A stretch of DNA of 64,000 nucleotides from Methanocaldococcus sp. 16A (GTDB lineage Archaea; AGJL01; Methanococci; Methanococcales; Methanocaldococcaceae). The translations under genes and the position numbers were made by a program. Location of the stretch: assembly GCA_049860595.1 (NCBI GenBank), contig CP187551.1; one strand, 5' to 3'. Under the pieces are notes generated by a model that saw only the letters and a list, made by a program, of their open reading frames with translations, was not told the DNA's origin and did no database searches. How positions within the stretch are numbered: the first letter of the stretch is position 1; each line of letters starts with the position of its first letter. Shown one piece after another: positions 34,500 to 49,226 of the stretch.

Positions 34500-35783
34500 T
34501 TATTTTATCTCTATCTTAGCTCCTAAATTTTTCATAACATCAACAAAATTTGGGAAAGATATTTTTACTGCCTCTTCTCCTTCAATTACAGTTTCTCCAT
34601 CTGCTTTTAAACCAGCTATGGTAAATGCCATAACTAATCTGTGGTCATTATAAGTGTTTAACTTAGCCCCTTTTAATTTTTTAACTCCTCTTATAATCAA
34701 ACCATCTGGTTTTTCTTTAATATCTGCCCCCATCTTTTTTAACTCTACAGCACATGCCCTTAGTCTATCACATTCTTTCAATCTAACATGCTCTCCATTG
34801 TAAATTTCTGTCTTTCCTTCTGCAAAGCATCCAAGAACGGCAATAGTTGGTACTAAATCAGGAATATCTTTAACATCCACATCTATTCCTTCTAAGCTGT
34901 ACTCTCCATCAATAACAACTTTATCTTTTTTAACTTTAATATCTGCCCCCATCTCTTTGACAATGTCAATTATTGCTCTATCCCCCTGCTTTGAATTAGC
35001 AAATAAATTTTCAATAACTAAATTTGAATTTATTAAAACCCCTGCTGCTACTAAATATGAAGCTGATGAGTAATCTCCTTCAACAATATAATTTATCGCC
35101 CTATATTTCTGATTTCCATAAACTAAAAATCCATTTTCTGTTTTATCAATTTTTATACCAAATCTATTTAAAATATCTAATGTTATGTCAATATATGGCT
35201 TAGATTTTAATGGAGTTGTTAAAATTATCTCAGTATCTTCTTTATTAAAAGGCAGAAGCATCATCAAAGAAGTTATAAATTGAGAGCTAACATCCCCTCT
35301 AATCTTTACAACATTCCCATCTATTTTAGAGCTCTTAACAATTATTGGTGCAGTTCCATCCATTTTTGATGAAAATGCATCTATATTTATCTGTTTTAGA
35401 GCATCCAATAAAGGTTGCATTGGTCTCCTTCTTATTGAATCATCTCCTGTTAAAATTGCATATCCTTTTGGTATTTGGGAAGATATAGAGGTTAATATCC
35501 TTAAGGTTGTTCCACTATTTCCAATATCTATAATGTTGTCTGGTGTTTTTAACTCTCCACCTTTAACAGACCATTCATCCTTTTCTTTATCTAAAGTTAT
35601 CTCAGCTCCAAGCATTCTACAGCCATGAACTGACGATAAGCAATCAGCTCCCCAGAGAGGGTTTATTATTCTGCTTTCTCCATCAGCTAAAGAAGCCCCA
35701 ATAACTGCTCTATGAGTATAGGACTTTGAAGGCGGAGCTTTAACTGTTCCTTCCAATCTGAAGGTTTTTCTCACAATTAACAA
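34500..35783 (-). CDS. aroA: 3-phosphoshikimate 1-carboxyvinyltransferase
   Basis: PPSKSYTHRA, GNSGTT, SSQF, RLKECDR, DHRLVMA. Confidence 0.96.
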   Translation of the reverse strand: MLIVRKTFRLEGTVKAPPSKSYTHRAVIGASLADGESRIINPLWGADCLSSVHGCRMLGAEITLDKEKDEWSVKGGELKTPDNIIDIGNSGTTLRILTSISSQIPKGYAILTGDDSIRRRPMQPLLDALKQINIDAFSSKMDGTAPIIVKSSKIDGNVVKIRGDVSSQFITSLMMLLPFNKEDTEIILTTPLKSKPYIDITLDILNRFGIKIDKTENGFLVYGNQKYRAINYIVEGDYSSASYLVAAGVLINSNLVIENLFANSKQGDRAIIDIVKEMGADIKVKKDKVVIDGEYSLEGIDVDVKDIPDLVPTIAVLGCFAEGKTEIYNGEHVRLKECDRLRACAVELKKMGADIKEKPDGLIIRGVKKLKGAKLNTYNDHRLVMAFTIAGLKADGETVIEGEEAVKISFPNFVDVMKNLGAKIEIK

Positions 35784-35933
35784 ACTATCACCATCAATAC
35801 TATTAACATTAAAAAATTAAAAATCTACTTTAAAATTTGTAATTTTATTTTATATCTCTTACTCTTAAATTTAAAAAAATAATAAAAAATAATATTTTCA
35901 ATGATTTTCCAAATTTACCATAAGTTGTCGCTA

Positions 35934-35965
35934 AGAAACTCTGCTTTAGGGCGGTGATGAATTCA
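35934..35965 (+). mobile_element. Possible decayed right end of an IS200/IS605-family element
   Basis: AGAAACTCTGCTTTAGGGCGGTGATGAATTCA resembles the GAAGCC.CGCC.TTTAGGGCGG..G....TCA right-end motif; isolated GC-rich patch in AT-rich spacer. Confidence 0.45.
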
Positions 35966-36049
35966 GATGAATGTTTTAATCAATAACATCATATTTCCAA
36001 TAAAAGCATTTTTTAAGCCCCTTATGCTTTTTAAATCTGATATATTCAT
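35963..36049 (-). pseudogene. Relic fragment resembling the DUF364 gene
   Basis: MNISDLKSIRGLKNAFIGNMMLLIKTFI*; 35987-36008 is the exact reverse complement of 44336-44357 (AFIGNMM). Confidence 0.45.
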
Positions 36050-36154
36050 AATTTAAAAATTTGTATTAATATATTTTTAGACGTATTTTTAGCTTTTACT
36101 TAAAAAAGATTTGTGATTTAATAAGTTAAATTGTATGTATAAATTAAAAAAAGC

Positions 36155-36397
36155 TTAATTTTTATCAATAACTAATTCTATAGCATTTACTGGACAAACT
36201 TCCATACAAGCTCCACATCCTCCACACAAATCTTGATTAACCACCTTAACAATCCCTTCCTCTACTATTATAACAACCTCATCTGTTTCAGGCCCCTTTC
36301 CTCCCCAAACTCCCGGGTCTTTTGCATTAACGGAGCATGAGACAACGCAATTTCCACAACCATGGCATCTCTCTGGATAAACAACCAACTTATACAT
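36155..36397 (-). CDS. fwdG: Formylmethanofuran dehydrogenase ferredoxin subunit G
   Basis: RCHGCGNCVVSC.VNA...GGKGP; CGGCGACMEVCP; follows fwdF. Confidence 0.85.
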   Translation of the reverse strand: MYKLVVYPERCHGCGNCVVSCSVNAKDPGVWGGKGPETDEVVIIVEEGIVKVVNQDLCGGCGACMEVCPVNAIELVIDKN

Positions 36398-36409
36398 TTA
36401 ACCACCTCT

Positions 36410-37474
36410 TTATTCAGTTGCTAAATTTTCAAATGCTTTTTTCCAAGCTATTGGTTTTGTTTTTGTTATGCTAATCTCTTTCCTTACAACTTTTATTGCA
36501 TTAACTGGACATGCCTTAGCACAAGCCCCACATAAAACACAGAGGTTTTGATTAACAACCAATCTTGAAACTTTTTCAGCTTTATCTTTTGGTTTAGGGA
36601 ATTCTAAGGCATTACATGGACATATGGCAACACAAGCTTCACAAGCGTTACATGCATCAACATCAATTATAACTTCTCCTTTGAATGGTTTCTCAACTTC
36701 AATAGCCTCTGCTGGACATATAAAAGCACACCATCCACAAGCAACGCATAAATCTTCATTAATATTAACATTCCCTTTAATATCCTCATACAACTTTGCC
36801 TTTGGAATCTTTTTCATCAAAGGACATTTATAACAAATAACCTCTATTGCATCATGTGGACAGACATATTCACAAACTTTACAGTAAACACACTTATCTT
36901 TATCAACTTCAATGTCAGTTATTGGTTTTGGATTTGTTGGTGTTGGGTGATTATATTTTAAGTTTATAGCATCTGCTGGACAATATTCAGCACAAATTCC
37001 ACAGAAGACACAGTTCTCTTTATTTATGTTAATTTCTCCAATAACAAACTTCTTCCTCTCAGCTAAACTTCTTTCTACTGTTATAGCATATTGAGGACAG
37101 ACCATCTCACACTGCCCACATAAAACACATTTATCTTGATAAATTTTGATACTCTTCCTTTTAATCTTTGGATATTTTTCATCCTCTTTTATTGATTTTC
37201 CATTGATTTTTAAATCCATTGCATCAAATGGGCAAGATGCAGCACATAATCCACATAAAACACATTTTTCTTCATCAATATCTAACTTTGGAGCTTCAAT
37301 GAGACCTTTAGCTATCGCTCCTAAAGGACCCAACACAATTGCCTTTGTTGGGCAGATGTCATAGCAGATACCGCAACCAACACATAGGTAATCATTCCAC
37401 ATTAACTCCCTTTTTTCAAAACCCTTTCTTGAGATTGTTATAACACCATTATAAACATCCTTTATCTGTTGCAA
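36410..37474 (-). CDS. fwdF: Formylmethanofuran dehydrogenase polyferredoxin subunit F
   Basis: Eight CxxCxxCxxxCP motifs; LGPLGAIAKG; TTG start after GGTGG. Confidence 0.88.
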   Translation of the reverse strand: MQQIKDVYNGVITISRKGFEKRELMWNDYLCVGCGICYDICPTKAIVLGPLGAIAKGLIEAPKLDIDEEKCVLCGLCAASCPFDAMDLKINGKSIKEDEKYPKIKRKSIKIYQDKCVLCGQCEMVCPQYAITVERSLAERKKFVIGEININKENCVFCGICAEYCPADAINLKYNHPTPTNPKPITDIEVDKDKCVYCKVCEYVCPHDAIEVICYKCPLMKKIPKAKLYEDIKGNVNINEDLCVACGWCAFICPAEAIEVEKPFKGEVIIDVDACNACEACVAICPCNALEFPKPKDKAEKVSRLVVNQNLCVLCGACAKACPVNAIKVVRKEISITKTKPIAWKKAFENLATE

Positions 37475-37677
37475 GATACCACCTCTAAAAGAAATACTAA
37501 AAATTAAAATATTTGTATTTTTATATGTTTTTTATTTAAGTTACATATCATCGAATTATAAAAACTATTGCAAATAAATATTTTTTGTCTTAATCATAAG
37601 TCGTAACTTATATATATAAAATACCTGACTATATAATGTTGAAACATTACTAAAAGATATAAATTATGTAACCATAT

Positions 37678-37693
37678 TTAGTTACGTAACTAA
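37678..37693. promoter_or_regulatory. Perfect 16-bp palindrome TTAGTTACGTAACTAA, candidate operator
   Basis: Read directly, 25 bp before fmdE ATG in the divergent fwdF/fmdE spacer. Confidence 0.55.
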
Positions 37694-37718
37694 TTTTAAT
37701 TAACTCGGTGATAGTTGT

Positions 37719-38291
37719 ATGGATATTCTAAACTCTATAACTAACAAACTTGATGGAATTAAAAGGGAAGATATTGAAAAAGTCATTAATTTTCATGGTT
37801 GTTTAAGTCCCGGAGTTTTAATTGGAATCTTCATGTTTAATTTGGCTAAGAAAATCCTCAATATTGGTGAAAATGACAGAATTTATGCTATTTGTGAAAC
37901 CTACAATTGTGTTCCTGATGCTTTCCAAATTCTTGGAAGATGCACAACAGGAAATAAAAGATTAAAAATCAATGACACTGGAAAGATGGCTGTAACTGTA
38001 AATAAATGGGGAAAAGAAGGGGAAGTTGTTAAAGGAGTTAGAATAATTCTCGACCATAAAAAAACTGTCAAATATCCAAAACTTCATGCTTGGTATCTAA
38101 ACATTGAGAAAGTTTCTCATGATGATGTTATTTTAGAAATTATTGAAGCTGGAGAAGATGTCTATTCTTATGAGTTTGTTGATATTCTCGTTCCACACAA
38201 ACAAAAAAAATCTATAAAATTGTGTGAAATTTGCAAAGAACCTTTTATACAAAAAAGAAATGAAACTATCTGCTCATCTTGCCAAAATTAG
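37719..38291 (+). CDS. fmdE: FmdE family protein with C-terminal zinc finger
   Basis: FHGCLSPG, ETYNCVPDAFQ, CTTGN, CEICKE...CSSC. Confidence 0.88.
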   Translation: MDILNSITNKLDGIKREDIEKVINFHGCLSPGVLIGIFMFNLAKKILNIGENDRIYAICETYNCVPDAFQILGRCTTGNKRLKINDTGKMAVTVNKWGKEGEVVKGVRIILDHKKTVKYPKLHAWYLNIEKVSHDDVILEIIEAGEDVYSYEFVDILVPHKQKKSIKLCEICKEPFIQKRNETICSSCQN

Positions 38292-38306
38292 ATTTTTGGT
38301 GATATT

Positions 38307-40055
38307 ATGTATCTTGTAATAAAGAATGGATATGTATTTGACCCAATGAATAGAATTGATGGAGAAAAAATGGATATCTTTGTTAAAGATGGAAAGATTG
38401 TTGAGGAACTATCTCCAAATGAACTAAAAGATGCAAAAGTTATTGATGCTACAAACAAAACCGTAATGCCAGGAGGTGTTGATTCCCACACTCATGTTGC
38501 TGGACCTAAAGTTACTGTTGGTAGAATGATGTGTCCTGAGTATCAATACAAACACGTTGTGAAAAAAACTGATATAACTCACAGCGGTTCTGGAAATATC
38601 GTACCTTCAAGCTATGCTATGGGTTATAAATACACAATAATGGGTTATACAACTGTTTGCGAAGCCGCTACTCCTCCAATGCTCGCAAAACACACTCATG
38701 AAGAGCTAAAGCACGTCCCTATTTTAAATAAATGTGCATACCTAATGCTTGGAAACAATTGGTTTGTTATGAGGTATTTAAAAGAAGGAGATATTGAGAA
38801 AACTGCTGCCTACGTTGCGTGGATGCTCAAAACCCATAAATGTTTTGGGATTAAGTGTGTAAATCCTGCTGGTGTAGAGAACTGGGGTTGGGGTTTAAAT
38901 ATCTATTCCTTAGATGAGCCAAATTTGCATTTTGAAGTTACACCAAGAGAAATTATTAGAGGATTAGCAGAAGTTAATGAAATGCTTGGCTATCCAATGT
39001 CAATACATGTTCATGCCAATGGTTTAGGTCATCCAGGAAACTGGGAAATTGCAAGAGAAACACTAACAATCCCAAAAGACATAAAACCAAATCAAAAGGT
39101 TGAAATTGAAGAAGAAATAAAGACAAAAGTTCCTCATGAGAGAGAGCAGAGTATTTATTTAACTCATGTTCAGTTTAACGCATTTGGTGGAACTTCATGG
39201 AAAGATTTTGAATCTGGAACAAACGGAATTATTGACTATGTAAATAAATCAAAACATGTTGTTATTGACAGTGGTTGTGTTGTTTTTGGAAAAGCTATTT
39301 GTATGACGGGAGATGGTCCAAATCTATACGATTTGGCAGTTTTAACTGGAGGGAAATGGTCTAATGATGATGTTGAGTTGGAGTGTGGTTCTGGTATAGT
39401 TCCTTTCGCATACAGAAAGAAAAATGGTGTGCATAGTGTTCAGTGGGCGATGGGTTTAGAATTATTATTGGGAGTTAAAGACCCATGGAAGGTTGTTATG
39501 ACAACAGACAGTCCAAATGGAGGTCCATTTACAAACTATCCAAAAGTTATCTCATGGCTAATGTCTAAAAAGGCAAGGGAGGATTTGTTAAAAGAATGCC
39601 ACAAATGGGCTTCTGAAAGAACTGAGCTTCCAAACATTGATAGAGAAATGAGTTTATTTGAAATAGCAACAATTACAAGAGCTACACCAGCAAAAGCTGT
39701 TGGATTGGCTCCAATGAAAGGGCATTTAGGTGTTGGAGCAGATGCAGATATTGCCATCTATGATATAAACCCAGATACTTTGAATCCTAATGACTACAAT
39801 ACCATTGAAAAGAAGTTTTCTTGTACAGAATACACAATAAATGGAGGAATTATTGTTGCTCATAATGGAAAGATTGTTTCAACGCCTGATGGGACAACAT
39901 ATTACTGCAATACCAAATTCTCAGACGAAGAAATCTACAATGAAATGATTAAAGATGTTAAAGATTGGTTTAAGTATTATACGTTTGATTTCACCAATTA
40001 TCCAACAACAGAGCATTATTTAACAAAACCAACGCCAATAAATGTAGGTGAATAG
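38307..40055 (+). CDS. fmdA: Formylmethanofuran dehydrogenase subunit A (amidohydrolase)
   Basis: GGVDSHTH, GIKCVNP, HVHAN.LG.PGN, TTDSPNGGPF, GHLGVGADAD. Confidence 0.93.
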   Translation: MYLVIKNGYVFDPMNRIDGEKMDIFVKDGKIVEELSPNELKDAKVIDATNKTVMPGGVDSHTHVAGPKVTVGRMMCPEYQYKHVVKKTDITHSGSGNIVPSSYAMGYKYTIMGYTTVCEAATPPMLAKHTHEELKHVPILNKCAYLMLGNNWFVMRYLKEGDIEKTAAYVAWMLKTHKCFGIKCVNPAGVENWGWGLNIYSLDEPNLHFEVTPREIIRGLAEVNEMLGYPMSIHVHANGLGHPGNWEIARETLTIPKDIKPNQKVEIEEEIKTKVPHEREQSIYLTHVQFNAFGGTSWKDFESGTNGIIDYVNKSKHVVIDSGCVVFGKAICMTGDGPNLYDLAVLTGGKWSNDDVELECGSGIVPFAYRKKNGVHSVQWAMGLELLLGVKDPWKVVMTTDSPNGGPFTNYPKVISWLMSKKAREDLLKECHKWASERTELPNIDREMSLFEIATITRATPAKAVGLAPMKGHLGVGADADIAIYDINPDTLNPNDYNTIEKKFSCTEYTINGGIIVAHNGKIVSTPDGTTYYCNTKFSDEEIYNEMIKDVKDWFKYYTFDFTNYPTTEHYLTKPTPINVGE

Positions 40056-40056
40056 C

Positions 40057-41295
40057 ATGGAAGTTATCTTAACACCAAAAGATACTCCAGATATTCCAAT
40101 AGAAGCAGAGGTTATAAATCCAGATATATTTGCCAATAAAAGTAAGGAAGAGATTGAATCTCTCTTAGTTTGGCAAGGTCCTAATACATATCCAATCTCA
40201 GAGTTCTTTGATGTTGAGATAAGTCCAAATAACCCAAAAGATGTAACAATCATTATTGAAGGAGATGTTGAGAGAGTTAAATACATTGGTTCAAAAATGA
40301 GTTCTGGAAAAATTATAATAAATGGAAATGTCGGAATTCAACTTGGTTCAGAAATGAAAGGTGGGGAGATTGTTGTTAATGGAAATGCTAAACATTGGGT
40401 TGGTAGAGAGATGAAAGGGGGAGTAATAAAGATTAACGGAAACGCTGGAGATTACGTAGGCTCTGCCTATAGAGGTAGTTGGCATGGAATGAAGGGAGGG
40501 AAAATTATTATTGAAGGAGACGCTGGAAACAACGTTGGAGCGGCAATAACAGGCGGAGAGATTATTATAAAAGGAAATGTTAAGCAATTTTGTGGAATTA
40601 GACAAAATGGTGGATCTATCTATATTGGAGGAAATGCTGAGAGAGCTGTTGGAGTAGAGATGACAAAGGGAACAATAGTTGTCTGTGGAAGAATAAGGTT
40701 CTTCGCTCCAGGATTTGAGTTTGATGGAATAGAGAAGGACCTAAACATAAATGATATGCCAATTTATGGAGAATATCTCAAATTTATTGGAGATTATGTT
40801 ATAAGCAGAAAACCTAAAGGAGTTTTGTATGCTTTAAAAGAGAAAAACCTTGGACTTATAGAGCCAGAACTTTATGAATGCTATGAAAATTACAGATACG
40901 ATGGAGGAATTAAAGCTCTTCTAAACACTGGAAGTACTGTTGTTCAAGGAGAAATCATCAAAGGAGGAAAGAAATTTACTGAAAAATACGTTAAGGAATG
41001 TGCCGTCTGTTATATTCATCCAAATGACTATGAATATCTTGGAAAACCAGAGTATGTAAATGTAATCAGTGAGGATAAGAAAGCAAGTATAGCTCTGAGA
41101 GCAATTCCTGATAGCTCATTACAAGAAGGAACTATATTTATTCCAAGGTCTATTTGGGCTAATGTTGTTATTCTCTCCTATACAGAATCCATGGGTTCTC
41201 CACTCTATAAGGGGTGTTATGTCTATGTTGAGCCAGTTAAAGGAAAAGCTGAGATATTAACTGCTGAAGAGATTATGAAAAAGATATATGGGTGA
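40057..41295 (+). CDS. fmdC: Formylmethanofuran dehydrogenase subunit C fused to a C-terminal D-like domain
   Basis: G..M.GG.I.I.G beta-helix repeats, then LNTGSTVVQG...IFIPRSIWAN...PLYKG (FwdD fold). Confidence 0.9.
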   Translation: MEVILTPKDTPDIPIEAEVINPDIFANKSKEEIESLLVWQGPNTYPISEFFDVEISPNNPKDVTIIIEGDVERVKYIGSKMSSGKIIINGNVGIQLGSEMKGGEIVVNGNAKHWVGREMKGGVIKINGNAGDYVGSAYRGSWHGMKGGKIIIEGDAGNNVGAAITGGEIIIKGNVKQFCGIRQNGGSIYIGGNAERAVGVEMTKGTIVVCGRIRFFAPGFEFDGIEKDLNINDMPIYGEYLKFIGDYVISRKPKGVLYALKEKNLGLIEPELYECYENYRYDGGIKALLNTGSTVVQGEIIKGGKKFTEKYVKECAVCYIHPNDYEYLGKPEYVNVISEDKKASIALRAIPDSSLQEGTIFIPRSIWANVVILSYTESMGSPLYKGCYVYVEPVKGKAEILTAEEIMKKIYG

Positions 41296-41300
41296 AATTT

Positions 41301-42632
41301 ATGGCTATGAAGGTTTTTAGGGGTATAACTTGTCCTGTCTGTGGAATGGCGTGTGACGATATAGAAGTCTGGTATGATGAAGAAAAGCAGGAAATAATTG
41401 TAAAAAATGTTTGTAGAGAGGGAGCTCCAAAGTTTAAAGAGATTGTTAGTCCACATAGAATAAGAGAACCAATGATTAAAAAGAATGGAAAGTTCGTTAA
41501 AGTTAGTTGGGAAGAGGCAATAAATAAAGCTGCAGAAATTTTAGCTAATGCTAAGAGACCTCTCCTCTTTATGGGAGCTGAAACGTCAGCTGAAGCACAT
41601 ATAGTCGGAATGCACATGGCTGAATACTTAGGGGGAGTTGTTGATTCAAACTCAACAATATGACACGGTCCTACTTTAATGGGGGTTCAAGAGGCTGGAC
41701 TTCCTGGCTGTACTGCTGGTGAAGTAAAAAATAGAGCTGATTTAATCATATTCTGGGGCTGTAATCCAATGCACTCCCACCCAAGACATATGAGTAGATA
41801 TTCAGTATTTGCAAGAGGGTTCTTTAGAGAAAGAGGCAGAAAAGATAGAAAAATAGTTGTTGTCGACCCAAGAAAAACAGATACTGCAAAGTTAGCAGAT
41901 TTACATGTTCAGTTAAAGCCTAACACAGACTATGAGATGTTCTCTGCTCTCCTAACAATATTAAGGGGCAAAAAGCCACATCACAGCGTTGAGAAGATAA
42001 CTGGAGTACCAATTGAAGTTATGGAAGAGATGATTGAATGGATGAAAAATGCTAAATTCGTAAAAATTTATGGTGGTTTAGGATTACCAGCATCAAGAGG
42101 GGGGCATAGAAATATAGAATGTGTCTTAACTTTAGTTAAAGAGTTAAATAAATATACAAAATGTTCCATTGGAGCTTTAAGAGGACACTGTAATGTTAAT
42201 GGATTCAACCAAGTTGCCTCATATATGTATGGTTATCCTTATGGAATAGACTTTGCAAGAGGTTATCCAAGATACAATCCTGGAGAATTTACATTTGCAG
42301 ACCTATTGAGAGAAAGAGAAATTGACGCTGTGTTAGTAGTAGCCGCTGGTATCGTTGAGCATACACCAAAAGACTGTGCAAAGTATTTGAATGAGATTCC
42401 GATGGTTTGTATAGATATAGCTCCCGGACCTACACCTTATGCTTCAGATGTTGTATTGCCTGGAGTTATTGATGGAATGGAATGTGGAGCAACATTCTAT
42501 AGGTTTGACGGATTAACTTTGTATGCAAAGCCTTTCACAACCTCACCATTTCCATTTACTAAGAGTAATGAAGACACTTTAAGACAAATATTTGAAAAGG
42601 TTAAAGAAATCAAAGAAGGTAAGAAAAAATAA
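41301..42632 (+). CDS. fmdB: Formylmethanofuran dehydrogenase catalytic subunit B, selenoprotein (UGA at 41661-41663 = Sec121)
   Basis: Two track ORFs are in one frame joined by NSTI-TGA-HGP at the conserved C/U-HGP metal ligand; N-terminal CPVCGMACDD; SECIS downstream. Confidence 0.92.
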
Positions 42633-42685
42633 TAAGAAAAATAAAAATTCAGCCAGGAAGTCCAGCCCACCAAAAAATGTTTGTG

Positions 42686-42721
42686 ATGATACGCCGAACC
42701 CGTTAAAGGGAGGCGTATCAT
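42686..42721 (+). ncRNA. Archaeal SECIS element in the 3' UTR of fmdB
   Basis: ATGATACGCC-GAA-CCC-GTTAAA-GGG-A-GGCGTATCAT: 10-bp stem, GAA/A internal loop, 3 G-C pairs. Confidence 0.9.
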
Positions 42722-42815
42722 AGCTCTTATTATTTTTATTTTTTTACAACATTTAGTAACTAATTTTGATTGATTTATTGAATAAAAATTAATTTAATAT
42801 AATTACGGTGATACT

Positions 42816-43947
42816 ATGATTTCAGTTAAAGAGGCAGAGAAGATTTTAGAGAAATTCAGATTTAACAAAACCGAATATATTAAAATAGAGGAAGCTTATG
42901 GAAGGGTTTTAGCTGAAGATGTTATAAGTGATACAGATATTCCAAGATTTGACAGAAGTGATATTGACGGCTATGCAGTAACAGAAATTTTAGATGAGTA
43001 TGTTTTAATTGAAGAAGTTTTTGCTGGAGATGATAAAGATTTAGTGATAGAGGGAAACGAATGTGTTTTAGTAGCAACAGGAGGGAAAGTTCCAAAAAAT
43101 ACAAAGTATGTTATACCAGTCGAAAATACAGTAAGAGTTAGAAATAAAGTAGTAGTTATTAGTTTTGATAGAATTGAAGGAATTTCAAAAAAGGGTTGTG
43201 ATATAAAAAAAAGGAGAGATAATTTTAAAGAAAGGCACTTTAATAAATGAGAGAAATATTGGAGTTTTGGCAGGATTGGGCATTGAAGAGATAAAAGTTT
43301 ATAAAATCCCAAAAGTAGGAATTATATCAACCGGTAATGAATTATTTAAGATGACTAAAGATATAAATTCAAAAACAATATCATCCATTGTAAAAAAAGC
43401 AGGTTGTGAGCCAATATTTTTAGGAATTGCAAAAGATGACTTTAATGAAATAAAAGAGAAAATAATTAACGCATCAGAAAAATGTGATATTGTTGTAACC
43501 TCTGGTGGAGTTTCTGTTGGAAAAAAGGATTTCCTACCGAGGGTTGTTGATGAATTGGGTGAGATTTTATTCCATAAGGTTAAGATGAGACCCGGCATGC
43601 CTATGCTATTTGGAAAAGTAAATGATAAACCTATTTTTTGCATGCCAGGGAATGTAGTTTCATGTTTAGTTTGCAGTTATATGTTTTTGCTTCCTTTTTT
43701 AATGAAAATGACACACAAACCATATAGAAAGAGAATTATTAAAGCAGAGTTATCAGAAAAAATTGTATCAGAACCAGATTTTTTATATTTAAGACCTGTG
43801 AAATTAAAAAATGGAATAGCCTATCCAATATTTAAAGGTTCTAATATACTAACTTCAATATTAGATGCCGATGGATTAGTCATAATAAAAGAAAATGAAT
43901 TAGAAAAGAACGAAGGAGAGATAATTGATGTTTGGCTGTTTGACTAA
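42816..43947 (+). pseudogene. moeA: Molybdopterin molybdotransferase MoeA, frameshifted at A8 run 43205-43212
   Basis: N-half GRVLAED, PRFDRSDIDGYAV, ATGG; C-half ISTGNEL, TSGGVSVG, RPGMP, MPGN; deleting one A gives a continuous DIKKGEIILKKGT...GVLAGLG. Confidence 0.85.
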
Positions 43948-43976
43948 TTTATTGCTTTTTTAAATTTGGTGAAAGA

Positions 43977-44741
43977 ATGATAATAGAAAAAATAAAAGAA
44001 AGAGCTTTAAATCTATTAAATGAAAAGGAAGATAAATTTAAAATATTAGATTTTTCTTTTGCTTTACCTTATAGTTATGTGTTAATTGAAAGCAATGGTA
44101 AAAAAGCTTTAGGCGTGGCAATGACATTATTGGAAGAGTATAGAGGGCATAAAAAGGATATAAATATATACAAAAATTTAGAAGATTTTATAAACATGGT
44201 AGATAGTTTTGATATTGTTGAAAGAACATTAGGATTAGCTGCAATAAATGCAGTATCTCAATATTATTTAAACTTTGAGGCAAATTGTAGAGATGCCACT
44301 GAGTTAGTTTTGAATAGGAATGATATTAAAAAAATTGCTTTTATTGGAAATATGATGCCAGTTGTTAATATGCTAAAAAAATCAGGAAAATTTGATATAT
44401 ATGTTTTTGAAAGAAATCCTTCTTTGTTATGTGAAGATGTTTTAAGTGATAGTTTTGAATATAGGTTATTACCAGAGATGGACGCAGTATTTATAAGCGG
44501 AACATCATTATTAAACGATACATTAGATTTTGTTTTAGATAGGGCTAAAAATGCCAAACTAAAGATTTTAGTAGGTCCTACTGCTCAGTCTCTACCAGAT
44601 TTATTTAAAGGGTTTGGTATAACTCATATAGCATCAACAAAGATTGTAAATGTTGATAAAGCACTCCTATATTTAAAATTTGCATCCTCTTCAATGCTAT
44701 TCAAAGAAGCTTCAAAGAAATATACCATTGAAGTTAAATAA
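43977..44741 (+). CDS. DUF364/DUF4213 Rossmann-like putative metal-binding protein
   Basis: LGLAAINA, AFIGNM, VFERN, ISGTSLLNDT, LVGPT. Confidence 0.8.
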   Translation: MIIEKIKERALNLLNEKEDKFKILDFSFALPYSYVLIESNGKKALGVAMTLLEEYRGHKKDINIYKNLEDFINMVDSFDIVERTLGLAAINAVSQYYLNFEANCRDATELVLNRNDIKKIAFIGNMMPVVNMLKKSGKFDIYVFERNPSLLCEDVLSDSFEYRLLPEMDAVFISGTSLLNDTLDFVLDRAKNAKLKILVGPTAQSLPDLFKGFGITHIASTKIVNVDKALLYLKFASSSMLFKEASKKYTIEVK

Positions 44742-44746
44742 AAATT

Positions 44747-44815
44747 AATTCCTCTCAGATACCCCGAAAGGGTTCATCATATTAATCAGCTTTTATTGCT
44801 CATCATCGAGGAATT
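44747..44815 (-). ncRNA. Box C/D guide sRNA
   Basis: Minus strand AATTCCTC-G-ATGATGA(C)-GCAATAAAAG-CTGA(D')-TTAAT-ATGATGA(C')-ACCCTTTCGGGGTAT-CTGA(D)-GAGGAATT with terminal stem. Confidence 0.9.
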
Positions 44816-44941
44816 AAAAATTATTCCTAAATCCTACAACTATACATAAATAAAATTTTTATAAACTTTTTTATATCACTTAGAATCTAAAAGTATATCC
44901 ACACTTATTCTTATAAAGACATTGATATCTATGGTGAAAGT

Positions 44942-46216
44942 ATGGGAATGACAATTGCAGAAAAGATATTAGCAAAAGCTTCTGGAAAGAAAGAGGTTAG
45001 CCCAGGAGATATTGTAATGGCAAACATTGATGTGGCAATGGTTCATGATATTACAGGACCTTTAACAGTCAATACATTAAAAGAGTATGGAATTGAGAAA
45101 GTTTGGAATCCTGAAAAAATTGTTATCTTATTTGACCACCAAGTTCCTGCTGATAGTATAAAAGCAGCTGAAAACCATATATTAATGAGAAAATTTGTTA
45201 AAGAACAGGGTATTAAATACTTCTATGATATTAGAGAAGGAGTTTGTCATCAAGTATTGCCAGAAAAAGGACATATAGCCCCTGGAGAGGTTGTTGTTGG
45301 TGCTGATAGCCATACATGCACACATGGAGCTTTAGGAGCATTTTCTACTGGAATAGGCTCAACAGACATGGCTCACGTATTTGCAACTGGTAAATTATGG
45401 TTTAAAGTTCCTGAAACTATTTACTTCAACATTACAGGAGATTTACAACCTTACGTTACTTCAAAGGATGTTATTTTATCAATTATAGGAGAAGTTGGTG
45501 TTGATGGAGCTACATATAAAGCGTGCCAATTTGGAGGAGAAACCGTTAAAAAAATGAGTATTGCTTCAAGAATGACTATGACAAACATGGCTATTGAGAT
45601 GGGAGGAAAAACTGGAATTATTGAACCAGATGAAAAAACAATACAATATGTAAAAGAGGCTATGAAAAAACATGGAACTGAAAGACCATTTGAAGTAATA
45701 AAAGGAGATGAAGATGCTGAATTTGCTGAAGTTTATGAAATTGAAGCTGATAAAATAGAGCCTGTTTTTGCTTGCCCACACAATGTAGATAATGTTAAAC
45801 AGGCAAGGGAAGTTGCAGGAAAACCAATAGACCAAGTATTCATAGGAAGCTGTACAAACGGAAGATTAGAAGATTTAAGAATGGCTATAGAAATCATTGA
45901 GAAACATGGTGGAATAGCAGATAATGTTAGAGTTGTTGTAACTCCAGCTTCAAGAGAAGAGTATTTAAAAGCTTTAAAAGAAGGAATAATTGAGAAATTC
46001 TTAAAGTATGGATGTGTTGTTACAAACCCTTCATGCTCTGCTTGTATGGGTTCATTGTATGGAGTTCTTGGAAAAGGAGAAGTTTGTGTCTCAACATCAA
46101 ACAGAAACTTCAGAGGAAGACAAGGTTCATTAGAGGCAGAGATTTACTTAGCATCACCAATAACAGCTGCTGCATGTGCTGTTAAAGGAGAACTCGTAGA
46201 CCCAAGAGATTTATAA
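44942..46216 (+). CDS. leuC: 3-isopropylmalate/citramalate dehydratase large subunit
   Basis: [33 protein letters not shown]. Confidence 0.9.
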
Positions 46217-47733: not shown

Positions 47734-47828
47734 TATAGTTTTTTGCAAAACTTTTTAGAATAAATAAGGCACATAATGGACACTTTAAATCTTCATTTTG
47801 GTTTTAACAAATTTTACTAAAAACTATA
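47734..47828 (+). repeat. Palindromic MITE-like repeat, family B (TIR TATAGTTT..TGCAAAA)
   Basis: tatagttttttgcaaaa...ttttactaaaaactata; first ~36 bp align to the reverse complement of 49830-49936; abuts selB stop. Confidence 0.7.
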
Positions 47829-49226
47829 TTACCCCCATTTTCTAACTCTTTTCAATATCACTCTTTCTCCCCCACTAATATCCCCATCAAATTCAGCAAT
47901 TAAAGCTCCCTTAGTCCCAAATGTTCCTTTTATAATTCCCCACACATCCTTATCCGGAACATAAACTTTTTCTCCAATAAGTTTTTCTCCAGATGATTTA
48001 GATGTAGCCAATCCTTCAATATAGATTTTATCTTTTTTCTTAACAATTTTTCCTTCTCTAACAACTATCTTTTTAACTTCTACATCTTCAAATCCTACAA
48101 CCTCTCCAAAACCACAAATTCTCAAAGTTGTTGGAGGCAAGTCCAATCTCATTATCAAAACTTTATCTCCTTCCTCAACAACAACCTTCTCTTCTAATTT
48201 AAAGATACAGTAGCAAGAATCTCCTCCTGTAATTTCTTCTAAAATTATTGGCTCTTCTTTATCGTTAATTTTCTCTATTTTATATGGGATTATCGTAGCT
48301 GGAACTGTTAAAAGCCCAATATTTATATGAACCTTCATCTTTGGAGTCAAATTGTATTTAAATAAATTAAGAATCTTTATCTTTGCTATAAACTTATCTA
48401 CAACCTTTAATTTTGTATCTTCTGAAGTTAAGATACAACCCCTAAACAAACTATCTGGCTCAATTCCCATTAAAGCCATTCCTACCCTATCTCCAGCATA
48501 AGCTTTCTCAACATCTTGTTTAAAGCACTGTATGCTTTTAACTTTAACCTCATGGTTTATTGGTAGAATTCTTAGAGTATCTCCAACCTCTACTTTCCCT
48601 TTATGAATTGTTCCGGTTATAACAGTCCCAACCCCTTTTATTTTAAATGCATGGTCAATAGGCATTTTTAAATAGCTATTTATCTCTCTTTCAATATTTA
48701 AGCTATCTAATAAATTTTTAAGCTCTTTCTTTAATTCTTCTATTCCCTCTCCAGTTTTTGCTGAGATTTTAACAATTTTGGAGTTCTTTAAATTCATAGT
48801 TGAGCTTAATATTTGTTTCATAAACATTTCAGTTCTTTTAATTTCCTCATCACTTGCAATATCTATCTTATTTATAACAACAATTGTTGGGATGTTTAAT
48901 AAGTCCAAAACCAATAAATGCTCTCCAGTTTGAGTTTTTGGTCCTTCTTTAGCATCTACAACTAATAAAGCAGCATCTATTATATTCCCTGCCCCAATAG
49001 CAGTTCTTATCAACTCAGAATGTCCAGGGGCATCAACTAAGGTAATTCTATATCTATCTAAAATAAAAGAAGAAAAGCCTAAATCAATAGTTATCCCTCT
49101 TTTTTGAGATTCTTTTGGTTTGTCTAATGCAGATGTTGAGACAATCTCTGTTAGTTGTTTTGCTAATTGTGTTTTTCCATGGTCAATATGTCCAAACAAT
49201 CCAACATTTACATTTTTCATTTCCAT
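47829..49226 (-). CDS. selB: Selenocysteine-specific elongation factor aSelB
   Basis: GHIDHGKT, RGITIDLGF, DAPGH, NKID, LRICGFG, C-terminal GTFG.KG domain. Confidence 0.93.
   Translation of the reverse strand: MEMKNVNVGLFGHIDHGKTQLAKQLTEIVSTSALDKPKESQKRGITIDLGFSSFILDRYRITLVDAPGHSELIRTAIGAGNIIDAALLVVDAKEGPKTQTGEHLLVLDLLNIPTIVVINKIDIASDEEIKRTEMFMKQILSSTMNLKNSKIVKISAKTGEGIEELKKELKNLLDSLNIEREINSYLKMPIDHAFKIKGVGTVITGTIHKGKVEVGDTLRILPINHEVKVKSIQCFKQDVEKAYAGDRVGMALMGIEPDSLFRGCILTSEDTKLKVVDKFIAKIKILNLFKYNLTPKMKVHINIGLLTVPATIIPYKIEKINDKEEPIILEEITGGDSCYCIFKLEEKVVVEEGDKVLIMRLDLPPTTLRICGFGEVVGFEDVEVKKIVVREGKIVKKKDKIYIEGLATSKSSGEKLIGEKVYVPDKDVWGIIKGTFGTKGALIAEFDGDISGGERVILKRVRKWG

Follow-up and report, generated by a model that had tools for sequence, protein, structure and literature searches.

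A selenocysteine-encoding fmdB gene of the Fmd lineage in Methanocaldococcus sp. 16A and a candidate RNA tether between its 3' untranslated region and coding sequence

The stretch of DNA analysed here, hereafter the window, comprises 64,000 nucleotides (nt) of contig CP187551.1 from Methanocaldococcus sp. 16A (assembly GCA_049860595.1). The gene in question, fmdB, would encode the catalytic subunit of a formylmethanofuran dehydrogenase and is the last gene of a plus-strand operon in the order fmdE-fmdA-fmdC/D-fmdB, as assigned by NCBIfam and Pfam matches. In the list of open reading frames (ORFs) of the window, the plus-strand ORFs 41292-41663 and 41679-42632 share one frame; with the TGA between them read as selenocysteine (Sec, U), the gene becomes a single read of 443 codons, in which codon 121 is the sole in-frame TGA and has the protein context NSTI-U-HGP. 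The product matches TIGR03129, the model of formylmethanofuran dehydrogenase subunit B, with 614.6 bits against a cut-off of 327.8. Translation likely starts at the ATG at 41301, which is preceded by GGTGA at 41291-41295, overlapping the stop of the upstream gene; the start is of the form M-A/T-M-K in five of the six closest orthologues as well, and the sixth (L014), which is alignment-trimmed, prints RLMK. A previous sequence-only reading of this DNA had described one frame broken only by a TGA at a Cys/Sec ligand position, a canonical archaeal Sec signal after the stop codon, and an fmdE-A-C/D-B operon, and each of these elements is borne out by the data below. Taken as a whole, the locus very probably encodes FmdB, the CO2-reducing pterin subunit, with Sec as the Mo/W ligand, an explanation that takes in the operon, signal-dependent recoding, a proposed RNA tether, and the place of FmdB as a third isoenzyme.

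In a residue alignment with the structure 9sw6_J of the Protein Data Bank (PDB), U121 aligns with the Cys of NATICHGP, i.e., the Cys/Sec ligand position, and both the N-terminal [4Fe-4S] cysteines (tCPvCG..CDD, C-R) and the tiCHGP motif are kept. The Mo/W atom would be bound by selenocysteine in place of cysteine. FmdB, at 443 amino acids (aa), is without domain IV, and a Molydop_binding domain sits in the FmdC/D fusion (residues 292-390). The nearest solved relative of the window FmdB is 9sw6_J, of the Methanothermobacter marburgensis/M. wolfei FwdA/FmdBCE system, which falls in the same clade (support 100/99, see below). The two systems have in common the leading fmdE, the fused C/D subunit, the [4Fe-4S] cysteines, and the ligand-His-Gly-Pro motif. 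However, the ligand is Cys in Methanothermobacter and Sec in the window FmdB; the window operon has its own fmdA, whereas FwdA is shared in Methanothermobacter (PMC3087415); and the window operon is preceded by a divergent FwdF/G pair, with no tfx-like gene seen upstream, unlike that of Methanothermobacter.

The selenocysteine insertion sequence (SECIS) begins in the 3' untranslated region (3'UTR), 53 nt past the stop codon of fmdB (42630-42632). It is made up of a 10-bp basal stem, a GAA opposite a single A, a CCC/GGG clamp, and a 6-nt loop, and it folds with a z-score of -4.46, none of 200 shuffles folding equally well. Its stem, the GAA/A with both A kept, the G-C clamps, the apical loop, and its site in the UTR agree with the canonical euryarchaeal SECIS as defined in PMC11881835. 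Hairpins of the strict SECIS pattern number seven in the 1.62-Mb genome, counting both strands, and 0, 0, and 0 in three block-shuffled copies of contig C1. The remaining six lie just 3' of ORFs read as HesB-like, HdrA, VhuD, VhuA/VhuU, FwuB, and SelD. These names were assigned through Sec-context motifs or, in three cases, through NCBIfam matches nearby; those of the HesB-like protein and HdrA come from motifs and are presumptive. An in-frame TGA is present in every hairpin-linked ORF except that of VhuA, where the hairpin would serve the small VhuU ORF lying between VhuA and the hairpin. An Rfam scan of the window gave no archaeal SECIS match, its matches being two tRNAs only. A canonical 3'UTR SECIS is present in seven fmdB orthologues, and compensatory double changes are seen at five of its 12 predicted pairs. 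The T5 and T7 tracts directly after the hairpin would likely form an archaeal terminator. The genome encodes tRNA-SeC, SelB (538.6 bits), and SepSecS (609.2 bits), the SelB gene being located in the window itself (about 47802-49211, minus strand), 5 kb from fmdB. In the proposed mechanism, the 3'UTR SECIS would direct Sec insertion at UGA 121, the codon being recoded by tRNA-Sec, SelB, and SepSecS.

Orthologues of fmdB (at least 61% identity) were found in 16 of 40 Methanococcales genomes, distributed over the compared genera as g1 4/17, g5 (Methanotorris-like) 2/2, g3 4/13, g2 6/7, and g4 0/1. Fifteen of the 16 carry TGA at the same codon; the sole other (G020) has TGT and is identical to record P0005, named M. 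vannielii by NCBI. The sequence-only reading had regarded enzymes of the molybdenum lineage as Cys enzymes, a premise that these counts do not support: Sec ligation is the rule, and not the exception, in the Methanococcales Fmd lineage. Between loci L009 and L014, codon differences amount to 45 synonymous and 11 non-synonymous before the UGA and to 113 and 23, respectively, from the UGA on, and the predominance of synonymous change on either side indicates that translation continues beyond the UGA. If the TGA were a plain nonsense mutation, the locus would be a pseudogene or two separate ORFs, as one would gather from the 123-aa and 317-aa ORFs that gene callers give and from public records of relatives (P0002 and P0245) that show the 317-aa piece only. 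We consider this extremely improbable, in view of the precise location of the TGA at the ligand codon in orthologues from four genera, the purifying selection on both of its sides, a specific and covarying downstream SECIS, and a complete Sec machinery. The gene is rather a genuine selenoprotein gene, which gene-calling programs break up or shorten, and it matters mainly for annotation; the predicted miscall is exemplified by P0002 and P0245, which are truncated products of 317 aa, and under the names M. maripaludis and M. formicicus the records contain just the part after the TGA.

The suggestion that fmdB is an unrecognised addition to the selenoproteome, in contrast, does not hold, since genes of this kind had largely been described. 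Two read-through formylmethanofuran dehydrogenase B genes were reported in M. maripaludis (PMC1242214), and an annotated fmdB, MMP_RS02705, is the tenth selenoprotein of M. maripaludis S2 (PMC5887029). The second Sec-containing B subunit of that strain belongs to the same orthologous group as the window gene; the g2 orthologues are 61-63% identical to it, with TGA at the same codon and an fmdE-A-C/D-B operon by moeA. Among g2 genomes, G017 has FwuB- and FwcB-type genes only, and G018 and G019 carry a third, TGA-bearing B gene too. The window fmdB is a Sec-coding gene of an already known kind, not a novel selenoprotein.

The coordinates of the operon, its neighbours, and the RNA elements are collected in Table 1. 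The fmdE-fmdA-fmdC/D-fmdB operon would give FmdB its own A and C/D subunits, and the divergent FwdF/FwdG-like pair could provide an electron wire; the name FwdG for the 80-aa ferredoxin is a presumption from its size and its position beside FwdF. An fmdE-led operon with fused C/D is found in all seven compared Methanococcales loci, and moeA adjoins the cluster in the same number (7/7). In this assembly, the moeA gene contains a run of eight A (43205-43212) that is one base longer than in the aligned genomes G001 and G007, where the run is broken or shorter and the frame intact, and the homopolymer frameshift is either a sequencing error or real. The DUF4213/DUF364 gene that follows is labelled 'putative heavy-metal chelation'.

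Table 1. Features of the fmd locus (window positions) and of three further genes of the genome with candidate tethers (contig positions, C1).
Feature	Position	Strand	Basis or detail
80-aa 2x[4Fe-4S] ferredoxin, FwdG-like	36155..36397	-	Pfam Fer4, two stretches, E 2.1e-16
FwdF-type polyferredoxin, divergent	36410..37474	-	NCBIfam NF042909, 483.2 bits, cut-off 375
fmdE	37719..38291	+	Pfam PF02663 FmdE, E 3.7e-30
fmdA, amidohydrolase subunit A	38307..40055	+	TIGR03121, 827.9 bits, cut-off 392.75
fmdC/D fusion	40048..41295	+	TIGR03122 (C), residues 6-261; FwdD model, residues 289-414; Pfam GXGXG and Molydop_binding
fmdB, catalytic subunit, Sec at codon 121 (putative)	41301..42632	+	TIGR03129; Fmd clade
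UGA read as selenocysteine, putative metal ligand	41661..41663	+	alignment to 9sw6_J; TGA in 15/16 orthologues
Candidate tether, coding half (codons E-A-G-L-P-G-C)	41693..41710	+	complement search; starts 29 nt after UGA
Candidate tether, 3'UTR half (anchor)	42650..42667	+	complement search; 17 nt after stop, 18 nt before SECIS
Archaeal SECIS	42686..42721	+	folding, pattern scan, covariation
T5 and T7 tracts directly after SECIS, likely terminator	42733..42746	+	read from sequence
moeA, molybdopterin molybdotransferase, split by +1 frameshift	42816..43947	+	MoeA_N 42816-43250; MoCF_biosynth and MoeA_C 43267-43947
DUF4213/DUF364 protein	43977..44741	+	Pfam PF04016 E 4.6e-38, PF13938 E 1.9e-12
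fwuB, with candidate tether	C1:1336333-1337790		19-nt anchor; target 23 nt after UGA
hdrA, with candidate tether	C1:1329837-1332010		26-nt anchor; target 37 nt after UGA
selD, with candidate tether	C1:1222690-1223812		22-nt anchor; target 7 nt after UGA

The lineage of the window gene was explored by comparison with solved structures and by phylogeny. The window FmdB scores 631.5 bits against 9sw6_J, 441.7 against 5t5i_B (tungsten FwdB), and 418.4 against 9sfi_Q, whereas the order is reversed for the FwuB (455, 672, and 832 bits, respectively) and the FwcB (443, 672, and 748 bits) of the same genome. PDB 9SW6 shows the M. marburgensis Mvh-Hdr-Fmd complex, from growth with molybdenum in the medium, drawn as FmdABCFG. 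Among public records, P0016, which NCBI names 'molybdenum containing... subunit B [Methanothermobacter]', is 9sw6_J-like (794 bits), and P0144 is 5t5i_B-like (981 bits). A tree was built with IQ-TREE (LG+G4) from 68 hand-picked rows, i.e., 32 Methanococcales loci, 24 named protein hits, from which the Methanobacteriales and Methanosarcinales rows were taken, 11 named contigs, and the FdhA of this genome as an outgroup. It places 28 Fmd rows on one side of a branch with an ultrafast bootstrap of 100 and an SH-aLRT of 99, and a quick tree agrees. The Fmd side comprises all 16 Methanococcales orthologues, the Methanothermobacter molybdenum FmdB, and Methanosarcinales, while tungsten FwdB, FwuB, and FwcB fall outside it. 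By its sequence, the window fmdB belongs to the Fmd ('molybdenum-type') lineage, not to Fwd, and the phylogeny thus sides with the lineage that the earlier reading had proposed. FwuB is a separate gene: the window gene is neither a member of the Fwd clade nor linked to vhu/hdr genes, the two marks of FwuB. The FwuB proteins of Methanopyrus kandleri, M. maripaludis, and this genome resemble FmdB in matching TIGR03129, in their Sec position, in a 3'UTR SECIS, and in a tether (19 nt here); unlike FmdB, FwuB falls in the other clade, is 45% identical to it, lies behind vhuDGAUB, and is nearest to 9sfi_Q and 5t5i_B.

The Fmd isoenzyme probably lets the cell use molybdenum, as suggested by its orthology to Methanothermobacter FmdB and by the linkage to moeA in all seven compared loci. 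It is possible, albeit rather doubtful, that the Fmd-lineage enzyme carries tungsten in this hyperthermophile and is a second Sec-containing tungsten enzyme. Several points weigh against the molybdenum-type assignment: the tree rows were a manual choice among thousands of hits, with Methanopyrus absent, tungsten use is frequent among hyperthermophiles, the organism is related to deep-sea-vent Methanocaldococcus, and the moeA gene next to the operon carries a frameshift in this assembly. Furthermore, Mo versus W specificity is not derivable from sequence (PMC11656701), and tungsten is able to substitute in Fmd (PMC11484787). On the other hand, the M. maripaludis orthologue is sensitive both to the supply of molybdenum and to the loss of moeA: in strain S2, deletion of moeA brings a joint rise of fmdB, moeA2, and a molybdate-transporter gene (PMC10805699), and Fmd transcripts rise without Mo (PMC11484787). 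In the earlier proposal of an unrecognised molybdenum-lineage selenoenzyme, the Fmd lineage and the selenocysteine are upheld, the unrecognised status is not, and molybdenum itself is what we infer from the lineage.

The genome encodes three B subunits, namely FmdB (Sec), FwuB (Sec, TGA), and FwcB (Cys). The fwuB gene lies at C1:1336348 behind VhuG, VhuA, and VhuB, and fwcB clusters with a second VhuA/VhuB-type hydrogenase set and HdrA, the same layout as in the M. maripaludis JJ units hdrAU-vhuDGAUB-fwuB and vhcDGAB-hdrA-fwdB (PMC11097638). The separate fwd locus for which the earlier reading had asked exists as well, with a second FwdA at C1:1309197 and a FwdC at C1:1311232, 25 kb from fwuB; in the presence of these and of FwuB and FwcB, the fmd set is not the sole Fwd of the cell. 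FmdB would be the third isoenzyme beside FwuB and FwcB, which would serve a Fwd-type complex, and a repertoire of Fmd-Sec, Fwu-Sec, and Fwc-Cys would fit the supply of selenium and probably that of Mo/W. Beside fwcB, an FdhA-like protein of 372 aa and an FrhB-like one are encoded on the minus strand (L008 5627-7881; C1:230627-232881); the former aligns in two separate stretches to the model of the formate dehydrogenase alpha subunit, with 285 bits where the cut-off is 666. Together they may form an F420-dependent electron-donating module for the Cys back-up cluster.

How a signal in an archaeal 3'UTR acts over 1 kb on the ribosome at the UGA is, to our knowledge, an unsolved problem, and we know of no SECIS-binding factor in Archaea. 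In the fmdB transcript, a segment of the 3'UTR between the stop codon and the SECIS is the exact 18-nt reverse complement of a coding segment shortly past the UGA (Table 1). An 18-bp duplex joining these two segments, the one immediately upstream of the SECIS and the other 29 nt past the UGA, could form and would bring the SECIS, 1 kb away along the chain, to the ribosome paused on the UGA. Complementarity of this length exceeds the random-pair null, which gave 8-14 nt in 60 trials and, in 400 trials, a maximum of 14 nt, with at least 12 nt in 2 of the 400. Energies of -38.5, -24.2, and -14.0 kcal/mol are computed for the duplex at 37, 65, and 85 °C, respectively, so that it is predicted to be stable even at 85 °C. 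Of the seven orthologues with a 3'UTR SECIS, six keep the pairing at 16-19 nt; among these anchor-bearing orthologues, the six fully paired codons are free of synonymous change, and neighbouring codons vary. The seventh (L015), without an anchor, varies at those same codons. A minus-strand ORF of 74 aa (42497-42721) overlaps the 3' end of fmdB, the anchor, and the SECIS, and is most likely spurious.

Analogous candidate tethers were found in fwuB, hdrA, and selD, which, together with fmdB, have UGA-to-stop distances of 945-1386 nt, while the short genes hesB, vhuD, and vhuU show complementarity of just 10-13 nt. The anchor lies 12-19 nt from the SECIS in fmdB, fwuB, and hdrA of this genome. 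The duplex of fwuB, kept in 11 of 13 loci, shows compensatory changes; in L038, for instance, two changes in the coding half have their counterparts in the UTR, and a Pro codon CCC or CCA faces GGGG or TGGG. Of 15 hdrA loci with a strict SECIS, 11 have anchors of 20-28 nt, which always end 17-20 nt before the hairpin. In a survey of 30 selD loci, 25 of them with a strict SECIS, anchors measure 17-22 nt in g1 (12/12) and g5 (2/2) and 12-13 nt in g3 (7/8) and g4 (1/1), and none was seen in the two g2 loci evaluated. Overall, the tethers covary across Methanocaldococcus, the Methanotorris-like g5, and some g3 genomes, being shorter in g3. As a positive control, the published fdhA1 design was recovered in the fdhA of this genome, with flanks of 12 and 17 nt. 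In that design, a 5'UTR SECIS is brought to a point 43 nt past the UGA by ORF-complementary flanks, whose length is greater in thermophiles (Peiter et al. 2025, PMC11881835).

On balance, we lean towards the view that the tether is a SECIS-positioning device. Alternatively, the UTR-coding complementarity may serve mRNA stability, an RNase target, or ribosome slowing, a reading that we consider unlikely. In its favour, complementary flanks in an M. maripaludis reporter lowered mRNA abundance about three-fold with total activity unchanged, and the mesophilic g2 genomes are without anchors in selD. However, the targets begin 6-37 nt 3' of the UGA in all four genes, the anchors always lie just 5' of the SECIS, and the short selenoprotein genes, in which the UGA is already near the SECIS, have none, all of which speaks for positioning. 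Some observations weigh against a positioning role nonetheless: in the same reporter, run in a mesophile, the complementary flanks were not required and did not raise activity, although activity per mRNA was about two-fold up (PMC11881835); no compensatory change, but only invariance, was detected in the fmdB tether within its six orthologues; and L015 has a 3'UTR SECIS without an anchor.

The geometry of the proposed tether can be compared with two known arrangements. In the available account of the fdhA1 5'UTR SECIS (PMC11881835), a flank is complementary to coding sequence that lies a few tens of nt downstream of the UGA, as in the window; the window differs in its 3'UTR SECIS, in that only the 5' flank pairs, and in the 18-nt duplex. 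In bacteria, the signal lies shortly 3' of the UGA, and the same would be true in the window if the tether forms; however, the bacterial SECIS is embedded in the ORF, whereas long-range pairing would be used in the window, whose hairpin is of the archaeal GAA/A type. PMC9622424 describes natural Sec codons as being without base context. In the available text of PMC11881835, PMC9622424, and PMC11227280, whose supplementary lists may hold more, the fdhA1 5'UTR case was the only tethered or intragenic archaeal SECIS found, and a UTR-coding tether at a 3'UTR SECIS, as against that published form, seems to be new here. More generally, we propose, tentatively and with the balance tipping slightly against a scheme so broad, that in thermophilic Methanococcales mRNAs with the UGA at least about 1 kb from the 3'UTR SECIS (fmdB, fwuB, hdrA, and selD), a covarying tether of 16-28 nt docks the SECIS 6-37 nt past the UGA in a bacteria-like geometry; fdhA would represent the two-flank form, tether length would track growth temperature, and an intragenic hairpin may replace the tether in the fmdB genes of mesophilic and moderately thermophilic relatives. 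The conserved, covarying duplex beside the UGA offers a mutation-testable hypothesis for distant archaeal recoding, and the tether, if true, would amount to a design rule for high-temperature selenoprotein expression.

The intragenic hairpin concerns genera g2 and g3. Neither a 3'UTR SECIS nor a tether was detected in eight Sec-type g2/g3 fmdB orthologues (L016-L021, L023, and L024, in G021-23, G026, G032, G036, G018, and G019), and the missing 3'UTR SECIS is weak evidence, given that the relaxed SECIS scan misses the selD SECIS in four of seven g2 genomes. These M. maripaludis-type orthologues have a SECIS-like hairpin within the ORF, in contrast to the canonical 3'UTR SECIS and tether of the window fmdB. 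The in-frame GAA/A hairpin covers codons 151-160 (Y-W-G-T-N-P-M-D-S-M), 87 nt after the UGA, and synonymous changes in it are confined to the loop or are wobble-neutral. With a synonymous diversity of 0.117 against a mean of 0.44 (counted over eight rows, L017 being dropped as near-identical), these codons are the least diverse of any 10-codon window. However, the WGxNPM region forms hairpins in many Fwd/Fmd genes from codons alone, which argues against an intragenic SECIS, and the Cys orthologue L022 (G020) also keeps the hairpin. If it is a true SECIS, it would be the first intragenic one in Archaea.

The block from the ferredoxin to the DUF364 gene (35784-44941), 9158 nt long, is flanked on one side by an EPSP synthase gene at 34500-35783 and on the other by an aconitase-family gene at 44942-46216. 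The flanking genes stand 2064 nt (G005) or 1060 nt (G002) apart in two Fmd-less genomes of the genus, and they are non-adjacent in three others; G001 retains only a 37-aa FwdF remnant. The fmd operon is thus an accessory island within this genus, by gain or loss. Only four of 17 g1 genomes carry fmdB, the Methanocaldococcus FmdB rows nest within those of g5 in the tree (support 89/97), and FmdA is 89.5% identical to g5 versus 87.3% to the same-genus G007, which hints at a transfer of the operon between genera, from Methanotorris; the divergence ratio of Methanotorris to G007 is about 2.3 for both FmdB and FwcB, and transfer is not required. A further cluster, at L125 (G026:C1:1186000-1205999), consists of fmdE-C/D-B without fmdA, like the fmdECB of Methanothermobacter, and its FmdB joins the Methanothermobacter row with a support of 91/98.

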